A stretch of DNA of 64,000 nucleotides from an uncultured Pseudomonadota bacterium (GTDB lineage Bacteria; Oederibacteriota; Muellerivitia; Muellerivitales; Muellerivitaceae), in the NCBI GenBank assembly GCA_963770835.1, contig CAVYRH010000004.1, forward strand, positions 715,339 to 779,338, in the 5' to 3' direction. Position 1 is the first letter of the stretch. Each line of letters begins with the position of its first letter. The notes under the pieces are model-generated. The model did not search any database. It was not told where the DNA came from and saw only the letters and a program-made list of their open reading frames with translations. Positions 5,348 to 59,167 of this stretch are shown piece after piece. The translations under genes were made by a program, and so were the position numbers.

Positions 5348-8300
5348 GTGGCCCGGCCGCTCTTTTTGGACGCCCTCAAGAAAAAAGTCCTCATCTTTGA
5401 TGGGGCCATGGGCACCAATATCCAGGTTTATAACCTCACGAAAGAGGATTTCGGGGGCAAGGAGGGCCTGAACGACTACCTGGTCATCACCAAGCCCCAG
5501 GTCATCCGGGAGATCCACGAGGGGTTCCTCAAAGTGGGGGTCGACTGCCTGGAAACCAATACCTTCGGCTCCAACCGCTTGAAACTGGAAGAGTACGGTA
5601 TCGGCGACCAGATCGTGCAGGTCAACACCGCCGCCGTCAAGCTGGCGCGCGAATTGGCCGATAAGTATTCCACCCCCGACCAACCCCGCTTCGTTGTCGG
5701 CTCCATGGGCCCCACGGGCATGCTTCCCGCCTCGGAAGACCCGGACCTGGGCAAGATCACCGTCGATGAATTGGAAGCCATTTATTATGAGCAGGCCTGC
5801 ATCATGATCGACGCGGGCGTGGACGCGCTCCTGGTGGAAACCAGCCAGGACATCCTGGAAATGCGCGCGGCGGTCTTCGGCTGCCACCGGGCGCGCACCG
5901 AGAAGAAATCACCCGTGGGGATCATGGCCCAGACCACGCTGGACACCACGGGCCGCATGCTGCTGGGCACGGACATCGGTTCGGTGCTTTCCACCTTCTC
6001 GCGCCTTCCCATCGACGTACTCGGCATGAACTGTTCCACCGGCCCCAAGGAAATGAAGGACTCGGTGCGGTACCTGGGCCAATACTCGGGCATCCCCATC
6101 TCCACGATCCCCAACGCGGGCCTTCCCGAAAACCGGGGCGGCCAGGCGGTTTATCCGCTGAAACCGGAGGCCCTGGCGGCGGCGCTGAAGGAATTCGTCG
6201 AGGAGTTCGGCGTCAACGTGGTGGGGGGCTGCTGCGGCACCACCCATGAGCACCTGCGCCAAGTGGTCCAGGCCATCGGCCACCGGGCGCCCAAGAAGCG
6301 GGACGTGACCCACCTTTGCAACGTTTCCTCGATGATCAAGGCCGTGGACATGGACCAGGACCCCAAGCCGCTGATCGTGGGTGAGCGCGTCAATTCCCAA
6401 GGCTCCCGCAAGATCAAGCAGATGCTTTTGGCGGACGACTACGAGGGCATGGTGGCGGTCGGGCGGGGCCAGGCCGAGGGCGGGGCCCATGTGCTGGACG
6501 TCTGCGTTGCCTTGACCGAACGGCCCGACGAGAAGGACCAGATGAAGGCGGTCGTCAAAAAGCTGGCCCTGGGGGTGGATACGCCGGTCATGATCGACAG
6601 CACCGAGGCGGACGTCATTGAGGCGGCCCTGAAAATTTACCCGGGCCGGGCGATGGTGAATTCCATCAACCTGGAAGGGGACGGCTCCCGCGTGAAGCGG
6701 GTCTGCCCTTTGATCAAAAAATACGGCGCCACGGTCGTGGCCATGACCATCGACGACCTCTATTACGACAAGTCCAAACCCGCGGAAAAGGGCATGGCGA
6801 AAACCGCCGCCCGGAAGCTGGAAGTGGCCAAGAAGATCACGGATATCTGCGTGAACGAATACGGCATTCCCGCCGAGGACATCGTCTTCGACGCCCTCAC
6901 CTTTACCCTGGCCACCGGCGAGGCGGAATTCCTGAACTCCGCCGTCGAGACCATGGAAGGCATCAAGGCGATCAAGAAGGAAATCCCGGGCGTGCGCACC
7001 GTGTTGGGCTTGTCCAACGTGTCCTTCGGGCTTTCCAAGCAGGCGCGCGAAGTGCTCAATTCCGTCTTCCTTTACCATTGCGTGCACGCGGGGCTGGATA
7101 TGGCCATCCTGAACCCGGCGGATATCAAGCCCTACGCTTCCATCGCCGGGGACGAGCGCAAGCTGGCCGACGATCTGGTCTTCAACCGCGACCCCCAGGC
7201 CCTGGCCCATTTCATCCAGCATTTCGCGGGCAAGGCCCCCGTGGAGGCCCAAGGCGCCGCCGACCCGACGGAAGGCATGACCTTCGCCCAGAAGGTCCAT
7301 TGGAAGATCGTCAACCGCAAGCCCGACAAGATCGAGGCGGACCTGGCCGAGGTGATGAAGGAAAAAACCGCCGTCGAGACCCTCAATACCGTCCTCCTTC
7401 CCGCCATGAAGGAAGTGGGGGACAAGTTCGGTTCCGGTGAATTGATATTGCCTTTCGTGCTGCAATCCGCCGAGGTCATGAAGCGGGCCGTGGCCTATGT
7501 GGAACAGTTCCTGGACAAGTCCACCGCCACCACCAAGGGCACGGTGGTGCTGGCCACCGTTTACGGCGACGTGCACGACATCGGCAAGAACCTGGTGAGG
7601 ACCATCCTTTCCAACAACGGCTACACGGTTTACGACCTGGGCAAGCAGGTGCCCGTTTCCACCATCATCGCCAAGGCGCAGGAAGTGAAGGCCGACGCCA
7701 TCGGCCTTTCGGCCCTCCTGGTGGTCACCAGCAAGCAGATGCCCATCTGCGTACAGGAACTGGAAAAGATGGGCCTCCAATATCCCGTGGTGGTTGGGGG
7801 CGCCGCCATCAACCGCCGCTATGGCTACCGCATCAGCTTCGTGGATGAGAAGCTTTACGAACCCGGCGTTTATTACGCCAAGGATGCCTTCGAGGGGCTC
7901 GATATCCTGAACGCCCTGTCGGACCTAGCCAGTCGGGAAACCTTCCGGAACAAGGTGAAGGAAGAAGCCCTCAACTCCAAGGCCGTCGGGTTCGCCGACG
8001 CCAAGGTGGAAGAGGGGGAAGCCACGCCGGAAAAATACCCGCCCACGGTCAAACCGGCCCTGACCATCCCGAAGAATCCCTTCGCGGGAACCTCCATTAT
8101 CAACAAGGTGCCTTTAAGGGAAATCTGGCCCTATTTGGACCTGACCCAGCTTTACAAGCTCAATTGGGGGGTCAAGGGCAAGGATTCGGAAGAGTATAAG
8201 CACCTCATCCAGACCCAGTTCGAGCCCATGCGCCTGAAGATGCAGGACGAGATTTTGGCCAAGAACTGGTTCGAGCCCAAGCTGGTTTATGGCTTCTGGT

Positions 8301-8821
8301 TGGCCAACTCGGAAGGCAACGACCTTATTATTTACGACGGCAACAACCCCAAGAAGGAACTGGAACGCTTCAAGTTCCCCCGCCAGCGCGTCGGTCGGCA
8401 TTTGTGCCTGTCCGATTACTTCAAGCCGGTTGCCTCCGGCGAGAAGGACGTCGTGGCTTTCCAAGTCGTTACTATCGGCGATAAGGCCACGGAAATCATC
8501 GAGAAGTTGAACAAAGACGGAAAATACACCGATTCCTATTATTTACACGGTTTGGCCGTGCAGACCGCCGAAGCCATGGCGGAATGGATTCACCGCCGAA
8601 TCCGCAAAGAATGGGACCTGCCCATCGGGCAAGGGAAGCGCTATTCGCCCGGCTATCCCGCCTGCCCCGAGCAATCGGACCAGGAAAAGTATTTCCGGCT
8701 CCTGGACGCCACCAAAGCCATCGGCATCACCCTCACGGAAGCCCACATGATGGTGCCCGAGCAGTCCACCAGCGCCATTGTCATCCACCACCCCGAATGC
8801 GAGTATTTCGCGGTGCGTTGA
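5348..8821 (+). CDS. metH: Cobalamin-dependent methionine synthase
   Basis: DGAMGT, GGCCGT, pterin-binding domain, GDVHDIGKNLV B12 motif, C-terminal RYSPGYPACP activation domain. Confidence 0.97.
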   Translation: MARPLFLDALKKKVLIFDGAMGTNIQVYNLTKEDFGGKEGLNDYLVITKPQVIREIHEGFLKVGVDCLETNTFGSNRLKLEEYGIGDQIVQVNTAAVKLARELADKYSTPDQPRFVVGSMGPTGMLPASEDPDLGKITVDELEAIYYEQACIMIDAGVDALLVETSQDILEMRAAVFGCHRARTEKKSPVGIMAQTTLDTTGRMLLGTDIGSVLSTFSRLPIDVLGMNCSTGPKEMKDSVRYLGQYSGIPISTIPNAGLPENRGGQAVYPLKPEALAAALKEFVEEFGVNVVGGCCGTTHEHLRQVVQAIGHRAPKKRDVTHLCNVSSMIKAVDMDQDPKPLIVGERVNSQGSRKIKQMLLADDYEGMVAVGRGQAEGGAHVLDVCVALTERPDEKDQMKAVVKKLALGVDTPVMIDSTEADVIEAALKIYPGRAMVNSINLEGDGSRVKRVCPLIKKYGATVVAMTIDDLYYDKSKPAEKGMAKTAARKLEVAKKITDICVNEYGIPAEDIVFDALTFTLATGEAEFLNSAVETMEGIKAIKKEIPGVRTVLGLSNVSFGLSKQAREVLNSVFLYHCVHAGLDMAILNPADIKPYASIAGDERKLADDLVFNRDPQALAHFIQHFAGKAPVEAQGAADPTEGMTFAQKVHWKIVNRKPDKIEADLAEVMKEKTAVETLNTVLLPAMKEVGDKFGSGELILPFVLQSAEVMKRAVAYVEQFLDKSTATTKGTVVLATVYGDVHDIGKNLVRTILSNNGYTVYDLGKQVPVSTIIAKAQEVKADAIGLSALLVVTSKQMPICVQELEKMGLQYPVVVGGAAINRRYGYRISFVDEKLYEPGVYYAKDAFEGLDILNALSDLASRETFRNKVKEEALNSKAVGFADAKVEEGEATPEKYPPTVKPALTIPKNPFAGTSIINKVPLREIWPYLDLTQLYKLNWGVKGKDSEEYKHLIQTQFEPMRLKMQDEILAKNWFEPKLVYGFWLANSEGNDLIIYDGNNPKKELERFKFPRQRVGRHLCLSDYFKPVASGEKDVVAFQVVTIGDKATEIIEKLNKDGKYTDSYYLHGLAVQTAEAMAEWIHRRIRKEWDLPIGQGKRYSPGYPACPEQSDQEKYFRLLDATKAIGITLTEAHMMVPEQSTSAIVIHHPECEYFAVR

Positions 8822-8886
8822 AAAGCTCTTGACCGGAATATACCGAAAGGATATCTTTGTGATATCTCTTTTGGGAGGTTTCCGCC

Positions 8887-9105
8887 ATGTCCAGCATGCT
8901 GATCAAAAATATTCCTGAGGAAATCAAGAAAAAGCTCAAGGAACAGGCCGAGCTTAACCACCGGTCCGTGAATAAACAGGTGGTGTCAATCCTGGAACAA
9001 GCGGTCGCTAAACCTGGAATCTCCGCTCTTCCCCCGCCGCTCAAATTGAAATTCCGCCCCACGGACGCATGGCTGAACAAGGCCAAACGCTGGGGTCGTC
9101 TTTGA
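8887..9105 (+). CDS. Arc/FitA-like ribbon-helix-helix antitoxin
   Basis: MLIKNIPEEIKKKLKEQAELNHRSVNKQV; stop overlaps the PIN gene start. Confidence 0.85.
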   Translation: MSSMLIKNIPEEIKKKLKEQAELNHRSVNKQVVSILEQAVAKPGISALPPPLKLKFRPTDAWLNKAKRWGRL

Positions 9106-9503
9106 TTATCGTCGACGCGAATATCCTGGTTTACCGGATTGTGGAAGGCCAAAAGACCCTGATGGCTTTGGCGGTCCAAGAGATGGACCCGGATTGGAAA
9201 GTCTCCCCTCTTTGGAAATATGAATTTGGAAATGCCTTGGCTTTAATGATTCATCAAGGGCATTTGACGGCCAAAGTGGCCGCTCAATTGTTGGAAACCG
9301 GCTTAAAGGCTTTTGAATCCTGTGAAGTACAGGCTGATCCTGATTTGGCGCTTTCCCTGTCGGTCGAAAAGAAAATAAGCTTTTATGACGCGCAATACTT
9401 GGCCCTTGCGAAGTCACTGGGAGTTCCACTGGTGACGGAAGACAAGGGGCTTCGCCGGGTAGGGACGGGAATGGCAGTCAGCATGGAAGAATTCCTGAAT
9501 TAA
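9102..9503 (+). CDS. VapC-type PIN-domain toxin
   Basis: TTG start overlapping the antitoxin stop; IIVDAN, FYDAQYLALA, LVTED acidic PIN residues. Confidence 0.87.
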   Translation: MIIVDANILVYRIVEGQKTLMALAVQEMDPDWKVSPLWKYEFGNALALMIHQGHLTAKVAAQLLETGLKAFESCEVQADPDLALSLSVEKKISFYDAQYLALAKSLGVPLVTEDKGLRRVGTGMAVSMEEFLN

Positions 9504-9529
9504 TGAACCAAGGAACGAAGAATTTATAG

Positions 9530-9652
9530 CTTCTGGACGCCACCAAGGGCATCGGCATCACGCTGACGGAGGCCCACATGATGGTGCCAGAACAATCCAC
9601 CAGCACCATCGTTATCCACCACCCCGAGTGCGAGTATTTTGCGGTAAGATAG
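9530..9652 (+). repeat. metH 3'-end copy 1 (40 codons plus stop)
   Basis: Aligns to 8699-8821; encodes LLDATKGIGITLTEAHMMVPEQSTSTIVIHHPECEYFAVR*, 38/40 aa identical to the MetH C-terminus. Confidence 0.95.
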
Positions 9653-9694
9653 GCCCCTGTAAGCCGGGTTTTTGTATTTTAAGGGGAGGAATTT

Positions 9695-11707
9695 ATGAAA
9701 AGTTCGCTTTGTTTATTGGGAAAAGTTTTTTCAACCTTGTTTTTCTTTCTGGCCGCCGTTCATCCCGGTTTTGCCGACGATTCGGCCAACAGCCTCAATC
9801 CTGAAACCCAATACACTCTTCCCTCGGGCGCGAGCTTCAATGTCCCCAAGGGTTGGGATGTCCAAGCAAAAGGCGGAAGCTTCATTCTCCACGATCCCGA
9901 ACACCTCGTGACACTTGTGCTCACTGAGAACGAGGAGATAAGCCCCCAGGACGCGCTTCAGAAAGCGTGGAAAAGTTATAATCCCGATTTCTCCTATGCT
10001 GTTGCCACGCATGAATTTCCCAAGAGGGATAAGTGGGACCAGGTTTGCCGGCAATGGTATTTCGTGCCGAGCGAGCAAGATCCCTATAAAGCCAATGACA
10101 CCCGGGGGCTTTATGCGTTTGCGGGGAAAAAGGACGACCGTTGGTATGTAGCCTTGATGGATTACGACAAAGTCTCCGCGGACAAACGCCAAGCCCAAGT
10201 TGAAGTCATCATCGGCAGTTTAAAAATTCCCGGCGCAAAACCCACGCCGACGCCCGCCCAAGACGTTCAAATGGACGACAAGTTCTTCAAGACCTTCGAG
10301 GATTTCCTGGAACACGCCCGGAATGACTGTAAAGTGCCCGGGGCGGCGGTGGCCATTGTGAAGGACGGGAAGATCGTTTACGAGAAGGGTTTCGGGGTCT
10401 GTGAGAAGGGCAAAAAGGACCCAGTGACGACGAAAACCTTGTTTTCCATCTCCGGCATCACCGTGCCCCTGACGACACTTTTGATGGCCCGGCTGGTGGA
10501 CGCGGGGAAAATGAGCTGGGACACCCCCGTCACCCAGCTTTTGCCCGGGTTTCAATTGGGCGACCCGAAAACGACGTCGGAACTTACCTTGAAATACACG
10601 GTTTGCGCCTGCGCGGGGCTGGCCCGCCAGGACCCCGTACTGGTTTTCCCCACCGGTTACAGCAGCCCCGAAACGGTCATTGAAAAGATGCTCGCCATTA
10701 TGCCTACCGCCGGATTCGGGGAAATTTTCCAATCGAGCAACATCCTGGTGGCGACCGGCGGTTTCGCCGCGGCCCACGCCCTCCATCCGGACCTGCCGCT
10801 GGGCCAAGCCTACGCCGCCGCCATGAAGGAATATGTTTTCGACCCCCTGGGAATGGCGGACACCACCCTGGATTTCCAATCGGTCGCCGCCAAGGAGCAT
10901 GGGACTCCCCATTGCTACGTCCGGGATTATGATTACGACACCGTACCCTTGGCTTATGACGACTGGACCCTCCCCGTGGCCCCCGCGGTCGGCGCCTGGT
11001 CCAACGTCGAGGATATGTCCAAATACCTCCTGCTGGAACTCAACAAAGGCATAGGGCCGGATGGAACCCGTGTTGTTTCCGAAGCCAACCTCCTAAAGCG
11101 CCGTGAGCCCCACGTGAAAATCAACGAGGATTCCGATTACGGCCTGGGATTGAAAGTTTCGAACGACAAGGGAATCACGGTAGTGGGCCAGGGCGGAATT
11201 TCCACGGGTTACACTTCCGACATGGTTTTCATGCCGGACCGGAATATGGGGATGGTTTTGCTGACGAACGCCGACTACGCGGGATATTTCCGTGGCGCCG
11301 TTTACCAGAAGCTGATGGAGCTTATTTCCGGAAGGGAGGCCCACGCCCAAGAGAATCTTGACTCTGAATTGAGCACCCGGAGGAAGCAAGGACAAATACT
11401 AGCGGATTGGGCGAACAGCCAGATGTCCCAGTCTTGGTTTTATGATTTCGTGGGGACTTACTTTAACGAAGACCTCGGTGCCGTCTCCCTCAAAATGACC
11501 AATGAGGGTGGAATTTTCGACGCAGGCAAATGGAAGACTCACGTGGCGGGTACTGCCGGGCGTAATGGGGAAACCAAGTTCTACCTTACGGATCCCCCCA
11601 TCATCTGGTCGCAGTTTATTTTGAACGATCAGGACGGGCACAAGACCATGACCTACAAGACGTCCCAAAAGGACTATGTCTTCGAATGGGTTTCCAAAAA
11701 CCAGTAA
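9695..11707 (+). CDS. Secreted beta-lactamase/serine-hydrolase-fold protein (catalytic motifs degenerate)
   Basis: Signal peptide, VPGAAVAIVKDG, FDPLGMADT, PAVGAWSNVEDMSKY; the SxxK position reads GITV. Confidence 0.8.
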   Translation: MKSSLCLLGKVFSTLFFFLAAVHPGFADDSANSLNPETQYTLPSGASFNVPKGWDVQAKGGSFILHDPEHLVTLVLTENEEISPQDALQKAWKSYNPDFSYAVATHEFPKRDKWDQVCRQWYFVPSEQDPYKANDTRGLYAFAGKKDDRWYVALMDYDKVSADKRQAQVEVIIGSLKIPGAKPTPTPAQDVQMDDKFFKTFEDFLEHARNDCKVPGAAVAIVKDGKIVYEKGFGVCEKGKKDPVTTKTLFSISGITVPLTTLLMARLVDAGKMSWDTPVTQLLPGFQLGDPKTTSELTLKYTVCACAGLARQDPVLVFPTGYSSPETVIEKMLAIMPTAGFGEIFQSSNILVATGGFAAAHALHPDLPLGQAYAAAMKEYVFDPLGMADTTLDFQSVAAKEHGTPHCYVRDYDYDTVPLAYDDWTLPVAPAVGAWSNVEDMSKYLLLELNKGIGPDGTRVVSEANLLKRREPHVKINEDSDYGLGLKVSNDKGITVVGQGGISTGYTSDMVFMPDRNMGMVLLTNADYAGYFRGAVYQKLMELISGREAHAQENLDSELSTRRKQGQILADWANSQMSQSWFYDFVGTYFNEDLGAVSLKMTNEGGIFDAGKWKTHVAGTAGRNGETKFYLTDPPIIWSQFILNDQDGHKTMTYKTSQKDYVFEWVSKNQ

Positions 11708-11731
11708 TTCGGGTCGAATCGGGTTTGATAA

Positions 11732-11812
11732 GCCTTCATAATATTGCCGGAATAATCCACCAGCGCCATTGTCATCCGCTACCCCGAAAGCGAGTATTTC
11801 GCGGCGAGGTAA
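11732..11812 (+). repeat. metH 3'-end copy 2
   Basis: Reads AFIILPE*STSAIVIRYPESEYFAAR* versus MetH AHMMVPEQSTSAIVIHHPECEYFAVR*. Confidence 0.9.
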
Positions 11813-11836
11813 AAGCTTCAGGAAAAGGAGTTTTGC

Positions 11837-12679
11837 ATGAAGAAGATCGCTTTATCTTTTGCGCTCGTTTTTCTGGGAGTTTCCAGCGGTTATGCCGCCA
11901 CCGATAAGGACACGGTCGATTTTTTAAACAAACTCAATGGCCATTACTATTGTTTGATGCGGGAAGGGCTCCTGGATTTCCAGGCGGGGATCAAGTGCTC
12001 TTTTTTTGATGATTATTTAAAACAATGCTCGGCGAAATACGGTCCCGATGATAAGAGGGTCCAGGAACTCAAAAAGATTAAATTTGTCCTTTCCTGTTCG
12101 GGGAAGAATGAGTTTTCCTTTGAGGCCGCTTACGCTGAACCAAGCGGCGACCCGGCTTTCGACGAAATCGTTCAAAAAATGATTGGGGTCGTGAAGGGGG
12201 CTTTTCAGCAAAACATTTTCCCTTGGCGCTCGAATGTCTTGGAGCCCGTCTTCGGGGCGGACGATTACGCGAAATTCGACCTGCAAGTGGAGAAAAAAGA
12301 CGGCGGATTCGTCATCTATTCCACGGGGGACCAGCCCGTCAGCGAGTACGCCGATAACCAATGGAGAATTTACGAAATTGAGGCGGGCGGCAAGGCGAAC
12401 GTCCAATCCTGCAAGCTCAAATATATGGATACCTCCAAGGGGATGATCTTATCCGAAACCACCTCTGAGCTGCCCCAAGTGTCCACCGAGATAAATGCAA
12501 AGATGGAGTACCGGTCGGTGGATGGGTTCATGATGCCCAAAAGAATGTTGGTGCACATGAAGAAAACCGGGGACTCCGGCACCACTAACCTCGATGTGAT
12601 TTTTGAATTTGTGGATTATCGGATTGATAAAGGCCAGGCGGAAACGAAGCCAACCGATCAAACCGAAACGGGATTTTAG
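11837..12679 (+). CDS. Hypothetical secreted protein
   Basis: RBS AGGAG, signal peptide, 280 aa ORF. Confidence 0.75.
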   Translation: MKKIALSFALVFLGVSSGYAATDKDTVDFLNKLNGHYYCLMREGLLDFQAGIKCSFFDDYLKQCSAKYGPDDKRVQELKKIKFVLSCSGKNEFSFEAAYAEPSGDPAFDEIVQKMIGVVKGAFQQNIFPWRSNVLEPVFGADDYAKFDLQVEKKDGGFVIYSTGDQPVSEYADNQWRIYEIEAGGKANVQSCKLKYMDTSKGMILSETTSELPQVSTEINAKMEYRSVDGFMMPKRMLVHMKKTGDSGTTNLDVIFEFVDYRIDKGQAETKPTDQTETGF

Positions 12680-12699
12680 CGATAGCCTTGAGATTTTAG

Positions 12700-12748
12700 G
12701 CGCCATCGGCATTCACGAACTGAAAGCAAGTATTTTGCAGTGAGATAA
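12700..12748 (+). repeat. metH 3'-end copy 3 (short, degenerate)
   Basis: gcgccatcggcattcacgaactgaaagcaagtattttgcagtgagataa aligns to the last ~17 metH codons with a 1-nt deletion (AIGIH..ESKYFAVR*). Confidence 0.75.
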
Positions 12749-12753
12749 GAAGG

Positions 12754-13785
12754 TTGAAATTGAAAAGATATTTAATACTGGCTCTTATATCCTTGCTTTT
12801 CACTTCCGCAAACGCCCAATCCATCAATCCCGTTCATTTTGGATACATCAAGTGGGATAAGGACAAGCCGATTGTCCGGTTGGAAATGAATCTTGCACCC
12901 TCTATTACGGAAAAAGATCCTGGGGATTTATACGAGCTATTTATAAAAATATTTTTGGAAAAAGATTTATCCAAACCGGTTTCCGGGATTTACAACTGGC
13001 CCAACGAGAAGGATAGGCGTAATCCCCGCACAAAGTTGAAAGAAACACAGCTAACCGAAAGCCAATTTAAAAGTTTGGCGACTGAGAAAATCGGGGATGT
13101 TTATACCCTGGTTAGCCCCGGAGGAATTTGGCAAGCCAAGGTAACGGGTGGAACGATAGCGATCGATGAACAATTTGATGATTTGTTCCGGGTTTATTTG
13201 GATTTGGAAATCGATCATTTTAAGCCCCCCATTGAAACGGCGGGAAAATCGAGGGTTGAAACTGTAGGATTCGTTGGAAGTCATACGGTGAGCAATTTAA
13301 AGAGTTATGAGCAAGTATCCCTTGGACAAGACCAACAAATGGGCATTGAAAAACTTTTACGGGCCAAAATAAAAAAAGGGTTTAATGATTATTATTTTAA
13401 CTATTTTCGAAACGGCCCGGATTTGATGGTTGTGGCCGACAATGTTGCCGTGGATGGATCTGAAAAGAAATATGAAGGAGATTACGAAGAAGTTGCCAAG
13501 TTCCAATCGGCGGTCTATTTACTCAGGGATGGACAGCTTCTGGATATTTTTCCAGCCAAAGTGGCCCGTAATAATGAGGTCGATACGCCTTCTTCTTACA
13601 AAGCTTTGTATCGGTTTGAAGTTGATGGCGAGAAATATGAATGTATCGAGGAAGATGGGCAATCTTGCTGTACCGGGGGACCTTTTTCGCAGTATCACGT
13701 TTTTAAATTTAACCCCAAAACGACTTCTTTTAAAGAGATCGGAGAAAGTCGGGATTATCCACTTTGCATGGAGTTGTTTCTTTAA
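12754..13785 (+). CDS. Hypothetical secreted protein, AT-rich
   Basis: Signal peptide ending ANA, 343 aa ORF, visibly lower GC than metH. Confidence 0.72.
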   Translation: MKLKRYLILALISLLFTSANAQSINPVHFGYIKWDKDKPIVRLEMNLAPSITEKDPGDLYELFIKIFLEKDLSKPVSGIYNWPNEKDRRNPRTKLKETQLTESQFKSLATEKIGDVYTLVSPGGIWQAKVTGGTIAIDEQFDDLFRVYLDLEIDHFKPPIETAGKSRVETVGFVGSHTVSNLKSYEQVSLGQDQQMGIEKLLRAKIKKGFNDYYFNYFRNGPDLMVVADNVAVDGSEKKYEGDYEEVAKFQSAVYLLRDGQLLDIFPAKVARNNEVDTPSSYKALYRFEVDGEKYECIEEDGQSCCTGGPFSQYHVFKFNPKTTSFKEIGESRDYPLCMELFL

Positions 13786-13871
13786 CCAATGCCCACATGA
13801 TGGTGCCCGTACAATCCACCAGCGCCATCGTTATCCATAATCCGGATTGCGAATGCTTCGCGATTAGATAA
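13782..13871 (+). repeat. metH 3'-end copy 4
   Basis: Reads LTNAHMMVPVQSTSAIVIHNPDCECFAIR*; overlaps the stop codon of the upstream gene. Confidence 0.92.
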
Positions 13872-14439
13872 TTTTCTGCCGACCTAAAATTTAGATGGCA
13901 TGTATTTTTTATTAACATTAATTATTTTTTTCAAATTCGATTGAACAATTTTTTAATTCAAACCAAGTTAAGGATGCTTTTTTTATTTCACCGAAAACAG
14001 ACATGATTTCTCCACGTTGGGAAAATTTGAGTTTTGGACATGAACTTATATTCACATCAAAATTTATCATAGGATAATTGAAGGTATTTCCGATTTCAGA
14101 GGCAACAACAGTAACCATTCCTTCTTTGAGAGCGGAGGAAACAGAATGAAGTCGGACCTTCCAAGCAATTTTAAAGTTTTTGTATTCTTCACTCATTTTT
14201 TCTTGTTGATACGGCGGTAATTTATTCAATTGTTTTGAAATTTCCGTTGGGGTTGGATCAGTATGGTATGAATTTTTTTGATCGAGTTTACTTTTTTCAA
14301 TCATGACAACAGGAGATTCGGGATTTGATGTTTTTGGTTTTTGATTAGTGGAAGGCGCAGAATTGTAATTGTTTTGAATTATTACATTCGCATTATTTTG
14401 TTGGTTCGAAGAGCCGGGAGAATTTTCATTATTTAAATT

Positions 14440-15610
14440 GTAACCTCTGAAAAACTCCTTCGTCTAAATGCTGAAATATAATAGCAGCATTCCAGACGGA
14501 GGGATTCCATGCAAATCAGCTTCGGGATGTACGAGGACAAGAACCGGCGACTCAAAAAGACCATGCTAGAGGAAGTGGATAAGGTTCTGGACTTTCCGAA
14601 GATCGAGAAATTGCTGATGGAAATGTACCGGGGCAACACGGGGAGACCTCCCATCCCGCCTTTGATCTTGTTTAAATGCCTTTTGCTGGAATCCTGGTAC
14701 GGCCTGTCGGATGTGGAAGTAGTCCAAGAAATCCACGACCGGCGCAGTTTTGAGCGGTTCGTGGGTGAAGGGGTGCGAGAGTACCACGTCGACGACACCA
14801 CTTTGGTGAAGTTTCGGGAAAGACTCCGGGAAGCCGGTTTGATAGACCGGGTTTGGGGGGCCGTGCAACAGGGTTTAGATCGCAAAGGACTTTTGGTCAA
14901 GAAAGGGGCCATTGTGGACTCCACCCTGGTGGAAGGAGCCTGTAAACCGGAATCCAAGGATCAAGAGGGAAAGCCGGTGGATGAAGATGTTCATTACACC
15001 TCCCGGCAAGGAAAAGCCGTGGATGGGATGAAGGTTCATGTGGGTCAGGACGAGAAAAGCGGCCTGATTCGAAAGATGGATCTAAGTCATATTGAGGAAC
15101 ACGATCACGAACATTTCAAAGACATGGTTCCTCGCGGGGTAGAACAGGCATTTGCTGACAAGGCTTACCGGTCGGCGCAACACGATGAATATTTGGAGGA
15201 ACGAGGGATTCGGAATCGAGTGTTACATCGTGTTTGGCGGGGACAGAAGCTGACCCAGAGGCAATTAAAGCAAAACAAGGTTTGGGGCCGTGTGAGGTGC
15301 GGGATCGAGGCGACAATGAGTACCTTGAAGCGGTGGTGTTCGATGGGACGAATGAGGTACTACGGGATGGCCCGAAACAAGATTTGGGTGTTGATCTGTG
15401 GCATCGCATTTAATGGGAAAAGAGCCGTAAAGTTGGCGGCGGCCTGAGCTAAGGGGAGTTTTTTCAGAGGCAGATGACGCAAGAAGGGTCGAAAAAGGAG
15501 TTCTAGGAGTAAGTGCAACACCTTTGGAGAAACAAAAACATCTCCAAGCGGGGTTGAAAACCCTGGTGAGAAGAGTTTCAAACCAAAACAGGGAGTTTTT
15601 CAGAGGTTAC
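14440..15610 (+). mobile_element. IS5-family insertion sequence, 19-bp perfect TIRs, 5-bp AAATT target duplication
   Basis: GTAACCTCTGAAAAACTCC (14440) and GGAGTTTTTCAGAGGTTAC (ends 15610); AAATT at 14435-14439 and 15611-15615. Confidence 0.92.
14509..15447 (+). CDS. IS5-family DDE transposase
   Basis: GRPP, WYGLSD, DDTTLVKFR, IVDST, ADKAY, R..IE motifs. Confidence 0.92.
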   Translation: MQISFGMYEDKNRRLKKTMLEEVDKVLDFPKIEKLLMEMYRGNTGRPPIPPLILFKCLLLESWYGLSDVEVVQEIHDRRSFERFVGEGVREYHVDDTTLVKFRERLREAGLIDRVWGAVQQGLDRKGLLVKKGAIVDSTLVEGACKPESKDQEGKPVDEDVHYTSRQGKAVDGMKVHVGQDEKSGLIRKMDLSHIEEHDHEHFKDMVPRGVEQAFADKAYRSAQHDEYLEERGIRNRVLHRVWRGQKLTQRQLKQNKVWGRVRCGIEATMSTLKRWCSMGRMRYYGMARNKIWVLICGIAFNGKRAVKLAAA

Positions 15611-15914
15611 AAATTATTATTTTGCTTTTTGGGTTTTCCCTGTAAGAAATAGACGAGAACTGCAACGCCGACTCCAGAGAATATCCAAGGAATGTTATTT
15701 TTTAGAATCTGAATCAAAGAGATTTTATCCATTGATTTGATCGTACAAGTTAGCTCTTTATTAAATCAAGCGAAAAAGCCTGGTGAAAGGTCTGGACATG
15801 AAAAAGAATTTTAGCCAGTTAGCTTTCAACGGGACCTCCAGACTTAAACTATTTTATTCTTCCTCATCCAAAGAATCGCGCCCATGTGATCGCGGCCATA
15901 CCAAGCGTTGGCGT

Positions 15915-16364
15915 CTAGCCTTTAAGGACCTTCTTCAAAAGATCTTTAAAGCCCAAAAACAGTGACGTCTTAGAAGGCTTCCGCCCTGGTTCTGGGATGG
16001 CCGCCATAGGCGGTTGTTGGGAGAGTTCATTTGTTTGGCTGGGGACGGGGGCCTTTGGGGCCAAATCCTCCGGGGTGGCGACGCGGTAGCGGATGCTCCT
16101 TCCGCCCCCCATCCGTATGATCCTTTTTGTCTTTAAGAGCCGCATCAGGGTATAAGTGAGCGTGCTACGGGCCCAGCCAAATTCCTTAGCCATCTCGCTG
16201 GGAACGGCCTCCCCCCGCTGTTTGATGAACTCCACGAGTTTATCCAGTTCCCAGTGACTCCTATATCCACCCCTTTTCTGGGATTGCCGCGTTGGTTTTG
16301 GGGCCGGTTCCTGCCCTCTTGCGGTGGAATTTGCGGCCTGGTCATCCGGAAGAGTGAAAGTCAT
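15915..16364 (-). CDS. Winged-helix DNA-binding protein
   Basis: PSEMAKEFGWARSTLTYTLMRL...GGGRSIRY HTH plus wing. Confidence 0.65.
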   Translation of the reverse strand: MTFTLPDDQAANSTARGQEPAPKPTRQSQKRGGYRSHWELDKLVEFIKQRGEAVPSEMAKEFGWARSTLTYTLMRLLKTKRIIRMGGGRSIRYRVATPEDLAPKAPVPSQTNELSQQPPMAAIPEPGRKPSKTSLFLGFKDLLKKVLKG

Positions 16365-16374
16365 AAGCGCTCCT

Positions 16375-16510
16375 TATTCTGCCAATAATATGCGCAGCGC
16401 ATATTATTGGCAGAATAGGCGGGTTCAAAAACGGGTTGGTGCCCAAGATTTAGAATTAATCTGCCAATAATATCAGCCGCTGATATTATTGGCAGAATAG
16501 CCGGGTTGAA
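16375..16510. repeat. Two tandem long palindromes (21-bp and 18-bp arms)
   Basis: tattctgccaataatatgcgc-a-gcgcatattattggcagaata (16375-16417) and tctgccaataatatcagc-c-gctgatattattggcaga (16460-16496). Confidence 0.85.
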
Positions 16511-16528
16511 ATCAAGAGATTGCCCAAA

Positions 16529-17044
16529 TTAAAGCTTTTTGTTTTCCCTCATCCAAAGAACCTGGCCTGTGTGGTGGAGGCCATGCCAGGCATAGGTGCC
16601 CAAAGCCGTTGAAAGCTTGGTGGCCTGGTTGTTCCGGGGGTTGATATAGGCCCGGGCGAACTCTTCCTCCGTCATGGACCGCATCAACTGCGCCCATTGG
16701 CGATGAAGCCCCTCGAGCAAGCCCAAGGGCCCCTCGACCGGCCCCGTTTTTGATTCCACCAAATCCACCAATTTATTCCTGTCGTAACCCTTCGTCACCG
16801 GCTGTTCCTCGGTCAGCGCCAATTTAAAGTTGACGTAGCCAAACGTATGGCTATCCGCCAAGTGGTGGACGATCTGGCGGATGGTCCAGTTCTTATACTT
16901 CGTGTCCAGTTGGGCGTCCGAGAGGCCCGCCACGGCTTCCCGGAGGGCTTGGGGGGCCTTTTCGATAATGGCGATCAATTCTTTTATGGGCGGGTTTTCT
17001 TCCGTATTTGGGTTGGGTCCGACGGGGTAATCAGGGGCTTCCAT
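16529..17044 (-). CDS. YfiT/BstA-family (DinB superfamily) thiol transferase, copy 1
   Basis: WTIRQIVHHLADSH, YAWHGLHH. Confidence 0.85.
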   Translation of the reverse strand: MEAPDYPVGPNPNTEENPPIKELIAIIEKAPQALREAVAGLSDAQLDTKYKNWTIRQIVHHLADSHTFGYVNFKLALTEEQPVTKGYDRNKLVDLVESKTGPVEGPLGLLEGLHRQWAQLMRSMTEEEFARAYINPRNNQATKLSTALGTYAWHGLHHTGQVLWMRENKKL

Positions 17045-17109
17045 GGTTTTCTCCTCGGTTTTGGGATTGGAAGGCTTATAGTAAGCCAAAATTTAATGGA
17101 GGTTTCAAT

Positions 17110-17784: not shown

Positions 17785-18300
17785 TTAAACTCGCTTGCTT
17801 TCCCGCATCCATAGGATCTGCCCCGTGTGGTGGCGGCCATGCCAGGCATAGGTGCCTACGGCGCTTTTCAGGGTGATCACCCGGTTGCGGTCGGGATGGA
17901 TGAAGGCGCGGTTGAATTGCTCCTCCGTCATGGACCGCAATAACTGCACCCACTGCTTGTGAATCCCCTCTATCATGGCCAGGGGGCCGTCAATAGGCCC
18001 CGTTTTCGATTCCTCCAAGTCCGACCACTTCCCATCGTCATAAGCCTTGATGACCGGCTGGTCCTCGGTGAGCGCCCATTTGAACCGGATGTAGCTGTTG
18101 GCGTGGCTGTCCGCCAAGTGGTGGACGATCTGGCGGATAGTCCAGTTCTTATACTTCGTGTCCAATTGGGCGTCCGACAGACCCCCGACGGCCTCCCGAA
18201 GGGCATGGGGGGCTTCTTCAATAATGGCGATCAATTCTTTCCGGGGCGGATTTTCTTCCTCTTTCAGGTTCGGGCCAACGGGGAATTGGGGCGCTTCCAT
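17785..18300 (-). CDS. YfiT/BstA-family thiol transferase, copy 2
   Basis: WTIRQIVHHLADSH, YAWHGRHH; same 516-nt length as copy 1. Confidence 0.87.
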   Translation of the reverse strand: MEAPQFPVGPNLKEEENPPRKELIAIIEEAPHALREAVGGLSDAQLDTKYKNWTIRQIVHHLADSHANSYIRFKWALTEDQPVIKAYDDGKWSDLEESKTGPIDGPLAMIEGIHKQWVQLLRSMTEEQFNRAFIHPDRNRVITLKSAVGTYAWHGRHHTGQILWMRESKRV

Positions 18301-56126: not shown

Positions 56127-56354
56127 GTGAGGACGATTACAGTCAAAATACCGGAATCTTTAGAACGAGAATTGGAAAACTTGGCCCGTAAACGCCATGT
56201 CAGCCGTTCGGCCGTTTTAAGGGAAGCGCTGAACGGTCTTGCTGGGCAGCGTAAACGCTCCGCCGCGGATTTGGCCGGAGAATTAGTAGGAAAGCTGCGA
56301 GGCGCTTCCGGTTTATCCACCGCATCCAAACACATGCGGGGATACGGTGAATGA
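56127..56354 (+). CDS. CopG/RHH antitoxin
   Basis: TITVKIP...SRSAVLREAL...LST...HM.GYG; overlaps the PIN gene. Confidence 0.82.
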   Translation: MRTITVKIPESLERELENLARKRHVSRSAVLREALNGLAGQRKRSAADLAGELVGKLRGASGLSTASKHMRGYGE

Positions 56355-56767
56355 AGCAGAATTACATCGCTGATACCGGCCCTATCGTTGCGCTTCTCAA
56401 CAGCCGCGACCAATACCACCTTTGGGCCCGCGATCTTTTTGAATCGATCGAACCGCCCCTTGCTACCTGCGAGGCTGTCATTTCGGAAGCCTGCTTTTTG
56501 GTGCGCGGCCTCAAAGGAGGGGCCCGTGCAGTATTTGGACTCCTTGATCGCGGTGTGCTTGACCTATCCTTTCGGTTGGGACCCCACTTAACCGCTGTCG
56601 ATGCCTTGATGTCCCGGTATTCCAGTGTTCCCATGTCGCTGGCAGACGCATGCCTAGTGAAAATGTCTGAACTAGATCCCAAAGCAATCGTTTTGACCCT
56701 CGATAGTGATTTTAAAATTTATCGGCGGAATGGCCGACAAGTCCTGCCGGTCGCCATGCCTGATTGA
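56351..56767 (+). CDS. VapC-type PIN toxin
   Basis: ADTGPIVA, EAVISEA, MSLADACLV, TLDSDF.IYR. Confidence 0.87.
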   Translation: MKQNYIADTGPIVALLNSRDQYHLWARDLFESIEPPLATCEAVISEACFLVRGLKGGARAVFGLLDRGVLDLSFRLGPHLTAVDALMSRYSSVPMSLADACLVKMSELDPKAIVLTLDSDFKIYRRNGRQVLPVAMPD

Positions 56768-56786
56768 TGTGGTTGCACTTTCATGT

Positions 56787-56814
56787 TGTCCACGAAGGGG
56801 ACCCTTCGTGGACA
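56787..56814. repeat. 28-bp hairpin repeat R1
   Basis: TGTCCACGAAGGG-GA-CCCTTCGTGGACA, perfect 13-bp arms. Confidence 0.92.
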
Positions 56815-56942
56815 GGCAAAAAGACTTAAAGACCTCTTTTGGGCGGGAAGGTTGAAGAGGTTTTTGACCCCTTGCGGGAATTGCACAATGGTGATATCAT
56901 GATATCGTAATTACGCTTAAGCCTACATTGTGGAGGTAACCT

Positions 56943-57194
56943 ATGGCCCAATTAATCGTTCGGAATTTAGATGACAGCGTGAAGTTGAAACTGAGCCAAA
57001 GGGCTCGGAAGAATGGGCACAGCACGGAAGAAGAGGTGCGAGACATCTTGAGAAATGTGGTAGGGAAGGATGGGGGCCGCGCTCCCATACCATTGGGCGC
57101 CAGGTTTAAGGCGCGGTTTAGGAAGATAGGGTTGACCAGAGAAATCCCCGAATTGCGTGGCCAGCAAGCCCAGCCTGTCTCCCTTGTCCCATGA
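56943..57194 (+). CDS. FitA-like RHH antitoxin
   Basis: MAQLIVRNLDD..K.KL..RA..NG.S.EEEVRDIL. Confidence 0.87.
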   Translation: MAQLIVRNLDDSVKLKLSQRARKNGHSTEEEVRDILRNVVGKDGGRAPIPLGARFKARFRKIGLTREIPELRGQQAQPVSLVP

Positions 57195-57610
57195 TCCTGC
57201 TCGATACAAATATTCTTTCCGCATTGATGCTTCGGGAACCGGATACTGCTGTCGTTTCATGGTTGGATCGCCAGTCCGTTGAATCGGTTTGGACCACGAC
57301 GATCACCGTATTTGAGATTCGGTTTGGCCTCGAGAACCTGGCGGGTGGGAAAAGACGGCATCAACTGGAAGACATTTTTAACCAAGCCTTGGAAATTGAT
57401 TTGGAAGGCCGGGTCCTACCATTTGACCTGGCTGCGGCCCGGGCGTCTGCCTCGATCGCGGCCCAACAAAGAAAAATAGGGCGTCCGGTTGAGATTCGAG
57501 ATGTCCAGATTGCCGGGATCGCTTTGGCCAACAAGGCAACCTTGGCCACCCGCAATATTCGGCATTTTCAAGGGCTTGGAATCCATCTGATTGATCCATG
57601 GAAAACCTAA
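57191..57610 (+). CDS. FitB/VapC PIN toxin
   Basis: MILLDTNILS, EIRFG, DVQIAGIA, LATRN.RHF, IDPW. Confidence 0.9.
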   Translation: MILLDTNILSALMLREPDTAVVSWLDRQSVESVWTTTITVFEIRFGLENLAGGKRRHQLEDIFNQALEIDLEGRVLPFDLAAARASASIAAQQRKIGRPVEIRDVQIAGIALANKATLATRNIRHFQGLGIHLIDPWKT

Positions 57611-57612
57611 CC

Positions 57613-57640
57613 TGTCCACGACGGGGACCCGGAATGGACA
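57613..57640. repeat. 28-bp hairpin repeat R2
   Basis: TGTCCACGACGGGGACCCGGAATGGACA, 2 nt after the toxin stop. Confidence 0.92.
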
Positions 57641-57682
57641 AGAAGAAAAGTATTTAAAGACCGTTTATTATCGGGAGGCGGG

Positions 57683-58777
57683 ATGAATCGAAATAATTCT
57701 AAAAGCCGGGGTTATGATTTGTTCATCGTTAGTCTCTTCTTCTTCTGTTTCGTATCCTTTTTGTCCCATTTTTTCCTTTTGGGTTTTCTCTTAATAGCAA
57801 TTGGTTTGTTTTTTATTTGGTCGCAAGAAAGGGGGTTCCGAGGGAAAGGGGCTGCCAGGAATGTCCAATATGCAGGCTTTTGGAGGCGATTAGGTAGTTT
57901 GACTGTGGATGGTGGGGTCTTTAGCTCCTTCTTCCTATTTTTATTGTTACTCCTGAGAAAAAATATTTATGACTATTGGATCAATGCTTTTTATTGCCTC
58001 ATTTGCTTGGGGGTTACCCTCTACACTCTCAAGCGATGGAGTCAAACGCCGGGTAAAATGGTGATGGGTATTCATGTCCTTAAAAACGATTTTTCCTCGA
58101 TCACTTTGAAACAAATTTTATTTAGACAAAGTCTGGATGTTTTTTTTAACTTCTGGTGTTTAGTAAAGGCCCTTTTGATCACGGGCGGTATAACAACGGC
58201 AGGTATGTTACTCGTTGGTTCTCAAGATCCATTCAGTTTTCCTTCCAATATTTTAAAAATCATCGAAGACAAATTACCTTATTTTTTTATTATTTGGTAT
58301 TTCAGCGAAATGGTCATACTTTTGATTAACCATAAAAAAAGAGCCCTCCATGATTATTTAGCCGACACGATAGTAGTTGTTAAAAAGAAAAGCGTTCCCC
58401 GGTGGACCTGGTGGGTTGTAGCGGCTTCCATCCTCATCATTTTCAGTGATTTTTATATAAGTTGGATCCACGGCGATTTAGCGGCGGAAACTTTGGCAGC
58501 CAAGGGAGACCCAACTTATGAAGAGATTCTTGGGAATGATTATTTTAGAGGTCGGCGGGGATTTCATAAAGACTACACACTGGCTTTTCAATGGTTCGAG
58601 AAAGCTGCGGTTCAGCAAAATGCAATTGCTCAATATTACTTGGGAGAAATGTACGAAAAAGGTTTGGGAGTGCATCCTGATAAAAATCAAGCCCTTCAAT
58701 GGTATTCCCGCGCTGCGATAAACGGTGATTTGGCGGCCCCGTTAGCCGTGAAAAGGTTGGGGAGGGAAAACAAATAA
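57683..58777 (+). CDS. RDD-domain membrane protein with C-terminal Sel1-like repeats, AT-rich
   Basis: YAGFWRRL, QTPGKMVMGI, KRALHDYLADT; A..WFEKAA.Q....AQYYLGEMY..G.GV. Confidence 0.85.
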   Translation: MNRNNSKSRGYDLFIVSLFFFCFVSFLSHFFLLGFLLIAIGLFFIWSQERGFRGKGAARNVQYAGFWRRLGSLTVDGGVFSSFFLFLLLLLRKNIYDYWINAFYCLICLGVTLYTLKRWSQTPGKMVMGIHVLKNDFSSITLKQILFRQSLDVFFNFWCLVKALLITGGITTAGMLLVGSQDPFSFPSNILKIIEDKLPYFFIIWYFSEMVILLINHKKRALHDYLADTIVVVKKKSVPRWTWWVVAASILIIFSDFYISWIHGDLAAETLAAKGDPTYEEILGNDYFRGRRGFHKDYTLAFQWFEKAAVQQNAIAQYYLGEMYEKGLGVHPDKNQALQWYSRAAINGDLAAPLAVKRLGRENK

Positions 58778-58791
58778 AGTCCAAGTCTACT

Positions 58792-58819
58792 TGTCCACGA
58801 CGGGGACCCTTCGTGGACA
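58792..58819. repeat. 28-bp hairpin repeat R3
   Basis: TGTCCACGACGGGGACCCTTCGTGGACA. Confidence 0.92.
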
Positions 58820-58887
58820 AGGGTGATTGGGCACGTTGACTAGAATGAAAGGGGTGAAAATTGCATGAAATATTTTAGAGGTGAAGC

Positions 58888-59070
58888 GTGAATCTTTTCC
58901 AAAGTCAATGTTCAAAATGTGGGGCTCAGTATTACTTAAACGCTTCCATTTGCCCGAACTGTGGAGACAGGAAGTTTAGCCTATTGACTAATGAGATTTA
59001 TGCGGTTGTATGGTTTGTTGTGGGTGGCATCTGTTGTTTGATTGTGTTGATAAAGCATTTTTTTAAATGA
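58888..59070 (+). CDS. Small zinc-ribbon membrane protein
   Basis: RBS GAGGTG; CSKCG...CPNCG plus C-terminal TM helix. Confidence 0.65.
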   Translation: MNLFQSQCSKCGAQYYLNASICPNCGDRKFSLLTNEIYAVVWFVVGGICCLIVLIKHFFK

Positions 59071-59112
59071 GTCAATCGAAGAAGATCGTTCGGTTAAATG
59101 CGGTTTTCCCAT

Positions 59113-59140
59113 TGTCCACGACGGGGACCCGGATTGGACG
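59113..59140. repeat. 28-bp hairpin repeat R4
   Basis: TGTCCACGACGGGGACCCGGATTGGACG. Confidence 0.9.
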
Positions 59141-59167
59141 ATCTTTTTCGGCAGTTTTGAATGAACC

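Follow-up and report, generated by a model that had tools for sequence, protein, structure and literature searches.

In the genome of an uncultured soil bacterium of the GTDB family Muellerivitaceae, the housekeeping gene metH is followed by four displaced copies of its own 3' end, each closing off a unit of unrelated cargo. This array lies in a stretch of 64,000 nucleotides (nt), hereafter the window (assembly GCA_963770835.1, contig CAVYRH010000004.1, forward-strand positions 715,339 to 779,338), whose numbering is used throughout. The array is real, it recurs behind metH in relatives and in the same form at other genes of this genome, it is free of integrases as far as the searches reached, with no recombinase genes nearby, and several of the displaced ends, here called tails, can be recognized by sequence comparison as foreign in origin. 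Its mechanism has been worked out only in part. Tentatively, and with a probability of roughly 0.45, we favor a reading in which cassettes would be inserted without an integrase by homologous recombination, the tail serving as a portable homology arm. The array consists of the following features, in order.

5348-8821, + strand: metH, intact gene for cobalamin-dependent methionine synthase, 1157 amino acids (aa), assigned by its Pfam domains
8699-8821, + strand: working 3' end of metH, the template of the tails (repeat and profile comparison)
8822-8886, + strand: leader of the toxin-antitoxin cassette, with a promoter-like site at 8829-8857 and a GATATC...GATATC palindrome
8887-9105, + strand: ribbon-helix-helix (RHH) antitoxin, FitA/Arc-like, 72 aa (PF22513, E 2.5e-11)
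9069-9503, + strand: PIN-domain toxin, VapC-like, 144 aa (PF01850, E 1.9e-10)
9530-9652, + strand: tail 1, last 40 metH codons plus stop (nhmmer E 2e-36)
9695-11707, + strand: beta-lactamase-fold protein, 670 aa, signal-like N-terminus (PF00144, E 3.5e-43)
11730-11812, + strand: tail 2, degenerate and apparently mosaic copy of the last 27 metH codons (nhmmer E 2e-18)
11837-12679, + strand: hypothetical protein, 280 aa, signal-like N-terminus, no Pfam family
12700-12748, + strand: tail 3, last 16 metH codons, heavily decayed (nhmmer E 5.5e-4)
12754-13785, + strand: AT-rich hypothetical protein, 343 aa, TTG start, signal-like N-terminus, no Pfam family
13776-13871, + strand: tail 4, last ~29 metH codons (nhmmer E 4.5e-21)

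A preliminary description of this DNA, made from its letters alone, had reported metH followed by four same-strand copies of its 3' end, all ending at the stop codon, and both a repeat search and an nhmmer profile made from the metH ends of 27 family genomes bear this out. The metH gene itself carries the domains S-methyl_trans, Pterin_bind, B12-binding_2, B12-binding and Met_synt_B12, all scoring above the Pfam cut-off. The repeat search returns 85-nt copies at 8739-8823, 9570-9654, 11730-11814 and 13789-13873, the later ones 75-81% identical to the first, together with a fifth, short copy at 12726-12747, the 22-nt core of tail 3. The profile matches 9530-9651, 11730-11811, 12700-12747 and 13776-13870, with the right edge always at profile position 122, within the stop codon, and ragged left edges at positions 1, 41, 74 and 28 for tails 1 to 4. 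No further copies exist in the 4.58-Mb genome, all matches outside the locus having E > 0.5. The similarity of tail 1 to metH begins near 9518, and its translation is nearly intact, with 2 residue changes over 40 codons after an in-frame TAG; tails 2 and 3 translate into degenerate sequence and tail 4 reads without a stop.

The spacings between cargo and tails are likewise as first stated, by open reading frames (ORFs) and profile edges. From cargo stop to tail start the distances are 15-27, 23, 21 and -9 nt for tails 1 to 4, tail 4 overlapping the stop of the preceding 343-aa gene, and from each metH-end stop to the next cargo start they are 65, 42, 24 and 5 nt. The inserts measure 0.7-2.1 kb and the repeats 48-123 nt, and there are no mobility genes in the array. 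The best-conserved stretch of the tails, GCGAGTATTT(C/T)GC, is also the conserved coding end and varies in tails 3 and 4; the alignment holds no block of perfect identity common to all tails. The only terminator-like hairpin on the + strand near any tail or junction lies at 13845-13865, inside tail 4. The preliminary description placed the cargo under read-through from metH, which would be one possibility; the toxin-antitoxin pair has a promoter-like site of its own (8829-8857). An assembly chimera, for which the preliminary description had proposed a check by long reads, is ruled out because soil metagenome contigs bridge every junction: contigs from runs X1 and X3, either of which may be the source sample of the assembly, span 8569-11610, 11277-11950, 12105-12926 and 13332-14311 with 0-1 differences.

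The family comprises 31 genomes, the related ones coming from soil and peat, and 0.5-20 kb downstream of metH was fetched in 27 besides this one (this genome is G000, relatives are G001 and so on). Tails ending at the metH stop codon occur in 6 of the 26 other genomes having a working metH end on the contig, with one each in G001, G002, G004, G010 and G045 and two in G041. In G007 a tail-like metH copy stands at the end of a contig, with a stop codon in front of it. The cargo differs from genome to genome, as follows.

G001: WG-repeat protein
G002 and G010: the same RHH+PIN pair as in the window
G004: 212-aa lipoprotein-like ORF
G041 and G045: small toxin-antitoxin-like pairs (DUF4258 with an MqsA-like zinc ribbon; RHH with a helix-turn-helix protein)

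Turnover of cargo while tails persist had been named beforehand as support for serial insertion at the metH end, and the relatives, with one or two tails and different cargo, provide it. Cargo ORFs end -9 to +36 nt from the tail start at all 11 metH junctions, and inserts can be as small as 0.3-0.7 kb. The RHH+PIN cassette has an identical junction between PIN stop and tail in G000, G002 and G010, hence in two genera, which fits joint transmission of cargo and tail as one unit. In G002 and G010 the PIN stop directly adjoins one and the same metH position, where this genome has 26 extra bases (9504-9529). These contain GAAGAATTTATAG, which resembles the last codons of the PIN gene and the PIN-end/tail junction of G002 and G010, and they are possibly a displaced end of the PIN gene itself.

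Three side observations belong to this locus. Run X1 holds a second metH allele at 8696-8815, with 9 differences over ~100 nt, that passes into unrelated sequence from 8815, just before the stop codon; a co-occurring relative therefore has other DNA behind metH. A joint 8667 -> 13806 in X7 was considered as a shorter array and rejected, having only 26 letters and loose ends on both sides, and was taken as a relative's metH; the X7 contigs cover 11717-13725 and not 8700-11500, which proves nothing about array variants. In G045 (locus L059), 270 nt between the metH tail and RHH+PIN contain an inverted 11-nt repeat, GTCATCGCGAG ... CTCGCAATGAC, ~150 nt apart, possibly a small non-autonomous element.

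Serial insertion at the end of metH, as first described, is upheld, and metH is not special: the same scar marks 13 other genes of this genome. A self-comparison by BLAST for short direct repeats with one copy in a long ORF and the other only a fragment gave 34 pairs whose repeat edge lies -300 to +100 nt from the host ORF stop. The edge is at most 10 nt from the stop in 16 of the 34, and these 16 pairs represent 14 host genes, metH included. The repeats extend 0-8 nt past the host stop codon, and the cargo begins at that point. Nine of the loci besides metH were annotated, and toxin-antitoxin domains are found in the cargo at six of them.

Prolyl oligopeptidase (POP): cargo a 317-aa ORF with no Pfam family, on the opposite strand
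leuA, two tails: cargo MNT plus HepT
asnB: cargo a Kelch protein, on the opposite strand
DUF1501 gene: cargo PIN
P-type ATPase: cargo Phd/YefM
DEAD-box helicase: cargo DUF3795, on the opposite strand
Rhomboid: cargo ParE
MarR-like gene: cargo DUF433 plus DUF5615/PIN-like
Class II ribonucleotide reductase (RNR): cargo DUF4258, DUF2283, HepT and DUF2442

The leuA locus (G000:C11:90942-92148) has one 124-nt unit without an ORF and one with MNT+HepT, and leuA in the same-genus genome G002 (C43, L093) has two tails with different cargo, which makes it a second hotspot like metH. No common motif was seen by eye among the host gene ends inspected, no formal motif search having been made, and this argues against one site-specific enzyme. 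The near-stop pairs fall on the + strand of their contigs in 14 of 16 cases (12 of the 14 host genes); no conclusion is drawn from this, because the contigs themselves have a strong gene-strand bias. A second displaced-tail unit (15844-16596) lies within the window itself, on the - strand, where a DinB gene (16529-17089) is followed by a 149-aa ORF (15915-16364) and then by its tail.

15844-15911, - strand: copy of the DinB 3' end, 68 nt, from its stop codon

A second DinB gene, paralogous to the first, occupies 17785-18300. The interval that separates the 149-aa ORF from the first DinB gene holds, at 16375-16499, two 43-nt perfect or near-perfect palindromes (TATTCTGCCAATAATATGCGC and its complement), 82 nt apart, which are possibly operators.

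The origin of the tails can be read from where their differences from the working ends fall. By a rough model of our own, a copy made in place and then decaying should show at most ~47% of its differences at third codon positions. The differences at codon positions 1/2/3 are listed here for the 11 pairs.

metH tail 1: 3/2/14 (19 of 123 bases)
metH tail 4: 5/2/15 (22 of 87 bases)
asnB pair: 5/4/25
MarR-like pair: 3/0/8
leuA tail B: 1/1/6
Rhomboid pair: 0/1/3
RNR pair: 3/1/6
metH tail 2: 7/3/6, decayed, no excess
metH tail 3: 9/6/9, decayed, no excess
P-type ATPase pair: 6/2/2, decayed, no excess
leuA tail A: 1/3/4, decayed, no excess

Tails 1 and 4 exceed the expected share at third positions (P 0.017 and P 0.037), and the better-kept tails therefore diverged mostly as working gene ends in another lineage. 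Single sites in the metH alignment can be compared in the same way. The working metH end has G at column 76 and T at column 91, states that both same-genus genomes also have; elsewhere the first occurs in one other genus and the second in four other genomes, and both are synonymous. Tails 1 and 4 carry the family-majority states at both columns. Where this genus has a His-type codon, tail 2 has in its left part the Phe-type codon characteristic of four other genera, and it agrees with genus g3 in three or four additional states. This tail follows the beta-lactamase-fold gene, whose sole close orthologue among the 31 family genomes lies in a genome of that Phe-type-metH genus (G021, 63% aa identity, 14.5 kb downstream of metH). 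States that vary from one same-genus genome to another occur in both copies at asnB. Such markers were used because assigning tails to nearest neighbors by percent identity was rejected, the sequences being too short and some leading columns of the alignment non-homologous. Taken together with the third-position excess, they mark several tails as foreign, on the evidence of these comparisons.

The foreign states speak against duplication of the target on the spot, as might result from the filling-in of staggered breaks, a proposal made for restriction-modification genes. Insertion with long target duplication of such genes is said to have been described by Nobusato et al. in 2000. As presented in the part of Furuta et al. 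(2010, PMC2853133) used here, the pattern is defined by an insert below 20 kb, a repeat exceeding 30 bp and a lack of mobility genes, and most cases come from naturally competent species. Of the single-event patterns described, it comes closest: small selfish units, devoid of mobility genes, have on either side a direct repeat of over 30 bp, which in some cases overlaps a gene 3' end. The repeats reported there are near-identical to their target (44 of 46 and 417 of 423), whereas the copies here are 75-96% identical; the cargo here is toxin-antitoxin rather than restriction-modification, and stacks of four are not described in the portion used (PMC2853133). Several copies here have diverged as working genes in other lineages, and tails 1, 2 and 4 do not look like duplicates of the recipient's own target. 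In favor of duplication, leuA tail B shares two amino-acid states unique to this genome with its working end, and that pair may have arisen within the lineage. Against it stand the third-position excess of tail 1, tail 4 and the asnB and MarR-like tails, which denotes divergence under selection in separate lineages, the Phe-type codon of tail 2 and the segregating states at asnB, so that we regard it as scarcely credible.

Three tails look mosaic, with a foreign left and a native right part, so far as their markers can tell. Tail 2 combines its foreign left markers with an ATT state on the right, as in same-genus genomes, and the right halves of the G002 and G010 tails best match their own metH end (48/52 and 44/51, against 38-44 for other genomes). 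The preliminary description had preferred homology-driven or RNA-mediated capture over capture at a fixed att core, and the third-position excess and the mosaic-looking tails both support a homology-driven mechanism.

They also bear on sequential displacement by homology-facilitated illegitimate recombination, in which incoming DNA, anchored within metH by homology, would supply a fresh gene end together with the cargo behind it. The far end of this DNA would join illegitimately within the resident metH 3' region, and a tail would be a truncated native end belonging with the cargo that follows it. Displacement of C-terminal ends in Rhs genes is reportedly due to Jackson et al. in 2009. For Rhs genes and for effector-immunity arrays of the type VI secretion system (T6SS), the latter in V. 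cholerae, homology-facilitated illegitimate recombination has been proposed (Kirchberger et al. 2017, PMC5361080). The geometry in the portion of that paper drawn on is the same, with a conserved upstream anchor, new modules beside it and older ones pushed downstream, short partial anchor copies with differing left edges between the units and near the anchor, no integrase, and recombination with relatives' DNA proposed. G020 in turn has a homologue of the 280-aa gene directly behind metH, mirroring tail 2 and that gene here, and the G002 and G010 tails resemble the metH of their own lineage. However, tail 2 is foreign on its left and yet the gene following it is closest to one in a same-genus genome; the identical PIN-stop/tail junction in two genera fits a unit of cargo plus tail better; and mosaic tails are not predicted. 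We consider this displacement unlikely. As far as that source goes (PMC5361080), what is displaced in T6SS/Rhs arrays is the variable toxin tip with its immunity gene, and the gene's own end changes. The hosts here, in contrast, are housekeeping genes whose ends are conserved in the family, the cargo is unrelated to metH, and the tail seems to travel behind the cargo.

In the reading that we favor, the array would be built stepwise behind metH by the general homologous recombination of the cell. The incoming DNA would come from a relative and be arranged as metH end, cargo and tail, or would be a circle of cargo plus tail looped out between direct repeats. It would pair with the resident metH end and cross over within the tail, by a double crossover with the tail as right arm in the case of a linear gene-cargo-tail fragment and by a single crossover in that of a circle. 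The product would be an intact metH with the new cargo in the proximal slot, the older units displaced downstream, and a mosaic tail with donor sequence on the left and recipient sequence on the right. Its tail would allow a cassette to settle behind one and the same conserved gene in any relative, irrespective of the DNA downstream. We infer the recombination pathway, the direction of transfer and the route of DNA entry, for which natural transformation is a possibility. The genes for ComEC and DprA are present, which is weak evidence because both also match in 10 of 14 control genomes and are nearly universal; Ku was not found in this genome. The minimal mobile elements of Neisseria are alternative cassettes at one site, exchanged by transformation and homologous recombination. 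They resemble the present case in having alternative cassettes at one site between conserved genes, and differ in having two conserved flanking genes and no duplicated gene end.

A number of points weigh against recombination on a carried gene end. Recombination over 50-240 nt at only 75-96% identity is inefficient, and, most seriously, the founder events, by which the first unit of cargo plus tail arose at each gene, are not explained. Nor does the model explain the tight cargo-tail junctions (11 of 11 at metH) and the repeats ending at the stop codon; since stop codons matter to selection alone, the most economical account is that intact genes were filtered for, together with very short spacers and fast non-coding decay, although a mechanism tied to transcripts or to a dedicated enzyme may be responsible instead. 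When the 11 pairs are taken together, third positions account for just 98 of the 166 differences (59%), and the four pairs without excess lend no added support. The mosaic tails rest on few sites (in tail 2, about five left markers and one on the right), and the left halves of the three RHH+PIN tails are non-discriminating (33-37 of 42). In G002 the working end and the tail have right-side markers in common, and a simple single crossover would account for this only given a donor almost identical at that place or gene conversion afterwards. The unique amino-acid states shared by leuA tail B and its working end belong here as well, and no excised circle or shorter array was found in the metagenome contigs. 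The MNT-HepT cassette resembles its homologues at other places from the start codon until ~10 nt short of the stop, and these homologues have neither tails nor palindromes; cassettes therefore also move by other routes.

The absence of an integrase, which the preliminary description had claimed for the array, was confirmed by Pfam scans here and in relatives. In this genome PF00589 has 12 matches. The contig of the window holds none of them, and even the match closest to one of the 10 annotated tail loci is 65 kb from it; the single resolvase lies on another contig. None lies downstream of metH among the 150 listed of 225 PF00589 matches in the 31 family genomes, the closest among the matches listed being ~19 kb upstream of metH in G002; the other 75 of the 225 fall outside this statement and count as a further reservation about the favored reading. 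Recombinase, transposase or endonuclease domains occur in none of the 6 cargo ORFs of the metH array and in none of 15 cargo and neighboring ORFs of relatives (RHH+PIN homologues left out), and no homing-endonuclease-type Pfam domain was found in these two sets or in 21 ORFs at the nine other loci. Rfam families are likewise missing inside the metH array, the matches in the window being tRNAs, signal recognition particle RNA and group II introns elsewhere.

These searches bear on a possible origin of the tails as attR scars. The islands behind them would have targeted the metH 3' end, carrying a replacement for it, and would have had integrases that were later deleted, or else the scars would stem from cis-mobilizable elements (CIMEs) without integrases that such islands mobilized. 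Several well-known elements integrate into the 3' end of a gene and supply a substitute for it, among them e14 in icd, tRNA islands and the ICESt elements, and tandem accretion of CIMEs is exemplified by ICESt1/3 in fda. As in these systems, a further end copy preserves the gene here, and the displaced ends accumulate in a row; those systems need a site-specific integrase, which the searches here did not find, and a short identical core, which is not evident here. No integrase was seen at the metH arrays of 7 tail-bearing and 20 tail-free family genomes, among the DNA fetched and the matches listed. The smallest inserts (0.3-0.7 kb), the many site specificities that 14 different genes would require and the lack of a common block of perfect identity make this origin very improbable.

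Integrons and clusters of attC sites lacking integrases (CALINs) carry compact co-oriented cassettes, often of toxin-antitoxin pairs or secreted proteins, each followed by a repeat. The array had been called integron-like, and as an analogy this holds: four + strand cassettes are each closed by a repeat, and growth is apparently next to the anchor. The likeness does not extend to the machinery. The best score of the integron integrase profile TIGR02249 in this genome is 44.6 bits, where the cut-off is 265, and no IntI was found in the 31 family genomes at E 1e-30, a threshold at which no control genome matched either, so that there was no positive control. There is no attI, and the repeats are coding copies without hairpin potential: when the working end and the four tails were folded as + strand DNA, and two of these also as - strand DNA, no attC-like hairpins appeared and the folds were no better than those of shuffled sequence (z -1.7 to +0.95).

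An RNA-mediated capture, which the preliminary description had entertained, would have a read-through transcript of the metH 3' part and its cargo copied by a group II intron reverse transcriptase and the cDNA, ragged at its 5' end and with its 3' end where the transcript stopped, integrated by homology. Ragged left edges and cargo ends close behind stop codons would then be explained. Group II introns with a reverse transcriptase/maturase ORF do lie in the window, behind the second cassette array introduced below, and cargo is co-oriented with the host gene at 7 metH-family arrays and 6 of the 9 other loci. Neighboring bacterial genes are mostly co-oriented anyway, however, the POP, asnB and DEAD-box helicase loci (3 of 9) have cargo on the opposite strand, and there is no intron remnant in the metH array. 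The proposal is left without direct support, and we find it hard to credit.

A different kind of cassette array has units in common with the metH array. PIN homologues with 54-65% aa identity occur in 8 family genomes, in 5 of them at non-metH loci, and RHH+PIN homologues at other loci of relatives (seven relatives' loci) have 70-83% aa identity in RHH and 42-65% in PIN. Their arrays have units separated by a ~30-nt palindrome, TTGTCCACGACGGGGACCCGTCGTGGACAA, with 11-nt arms around an 8-nt center. The left half of the palindrome has 161 matches in this genome (both strands, at most 3 mismatches), many of them clustered at a spacing of ~0.3-4 kb. Such arrays look like a separate cassette system with a lox/dif-like site, and a literature search with the palindrome sequence found nothing. 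One of them lies in the window, with two group II introns directly behind its last palindrome.

56127-59886: palindrome-separated cassette array, palindromes at 56787, 57613, 58792, 59113 and 59869
59953-63870: two group II introns (Rfam D1-D4 and domain V)
62503-63870: reverse transcriptase plus maturase ORF of a group II intron

The array comprises RHH+PIN, FitA-RHH+PIN, an RDD/Sel1 protein, a zinc-ribbon ORF, and RelE with an MqsA-like protein, making up three toxin-antitoxin pairs and two further small genes. Outside this array, the same ATCGTGCCAGAGG stands behind many palindromes of the genome, as though the group II intron targeted the palindrome.

A dedicated, so far unrecognized recombination system acting in trans might capture cassettes at gene ends, the candidates being a tyrosine recombinase on the 11-8-11 palindromes or a nuclease. 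Of the 12 loci with RHH+PIN homologues that were compared, drawn from 9 relatives and this genome, most have the palindrome on at least one side. The cassette has an identical left border whether a palindrome or the metH stop codon precedes it, the leader at 8822-8886 being homologous to those of RHH+PIN cassettes behind the palindromic repeat in relatives; the junctions are very tight, and palindromes lie 10-26 nt behind two other tails. No palindrome is found in or beside the metH array of this genome, though, even with up to 4 mismatches, the 14 host gene ends have no obvious common motif by eye, and site-specific exchange fails to explain duplications of 50-240 nt and the third-position pattern. 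Such a system is quite improbable.

The statement in the preliminary description that no system of this form had been described went too far, as T6SS/Rhs displacement (PMC5361080) and long target duplication (PMC2853133) resemble it in the portions of those sources used. A search for toxin-antitoxin pairs between duplicated gene ends turned up one case, in Microcystis (PMC7935541), which was set aside, its repeats being intergenic and its structure therefore different. A non-exhaustive literature search found no description of stacks of unrelated cassettes behind housekeeping genes.

Some properties of the cargo and its surroundings remain to be added. The RHH and PIN ORFs overlap by 37 nt, and their layout is that expected of a type II toxin-antitoxin pair of putative VapBC type. 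The signal-peptide-like N-termini of the 670-, 280- and 343-aa proteins were judged by eye. Clustering of proteins (E 1e-8) had suggested that the beta-lactamase-fold gene is common downstream of metH, which was rejected when the matches proved to be distant paralogues. The 280-aa gene has 80.6% DNA identity to a gene in the same-genus genome G002, the similarity beginning at the ribosome-binding site and ceasing precisely with the stop codon of the gene in G002. The GC content of the 343-aa gene is 41-46%. Beyond tail 4 comes an AT-rich stretch and then an insertion sequence (IS), which has a depth of ~43 against ~6 for the array in the metagenome contigs and is thus multi-copy or common to other organisms.

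14434-15616: IS with a DDE_Tnp_1/DUF772 transposase ORF (14509-15447) and 25-nt inverted repeats (14434-14458 and 15592-15616)

A broader version of the favored reading is possible but doubtful. Gene-end tails would be the recombination sites of an integrase-free cassette system moved, stacked and swapped by RecA alone, any conserved gene would be a potential dock once a cassette gains its last 50-240 bases, the pool of cassettes would be common with the palindrome arrays, and many uncultured bacterial and archaeal lineages would be involved. If homologous recombination on a carried gene end suffices, small accessory genes could spread among fairly distant relatives without mobile-element machinery. 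This would help explain why toxin-antitoxin pairs, the clearest case, are so mobile and yet often have no visible vehicle. The pattern, a gene-end fragment ending at the stop codon a short way downstream, is easily searched for and marks 14 genes here. Displaced tails are also a dated record of past donors: their synonymous sites retain the signature of the donor, which could be used to trace gene flow among uncultured lineages.

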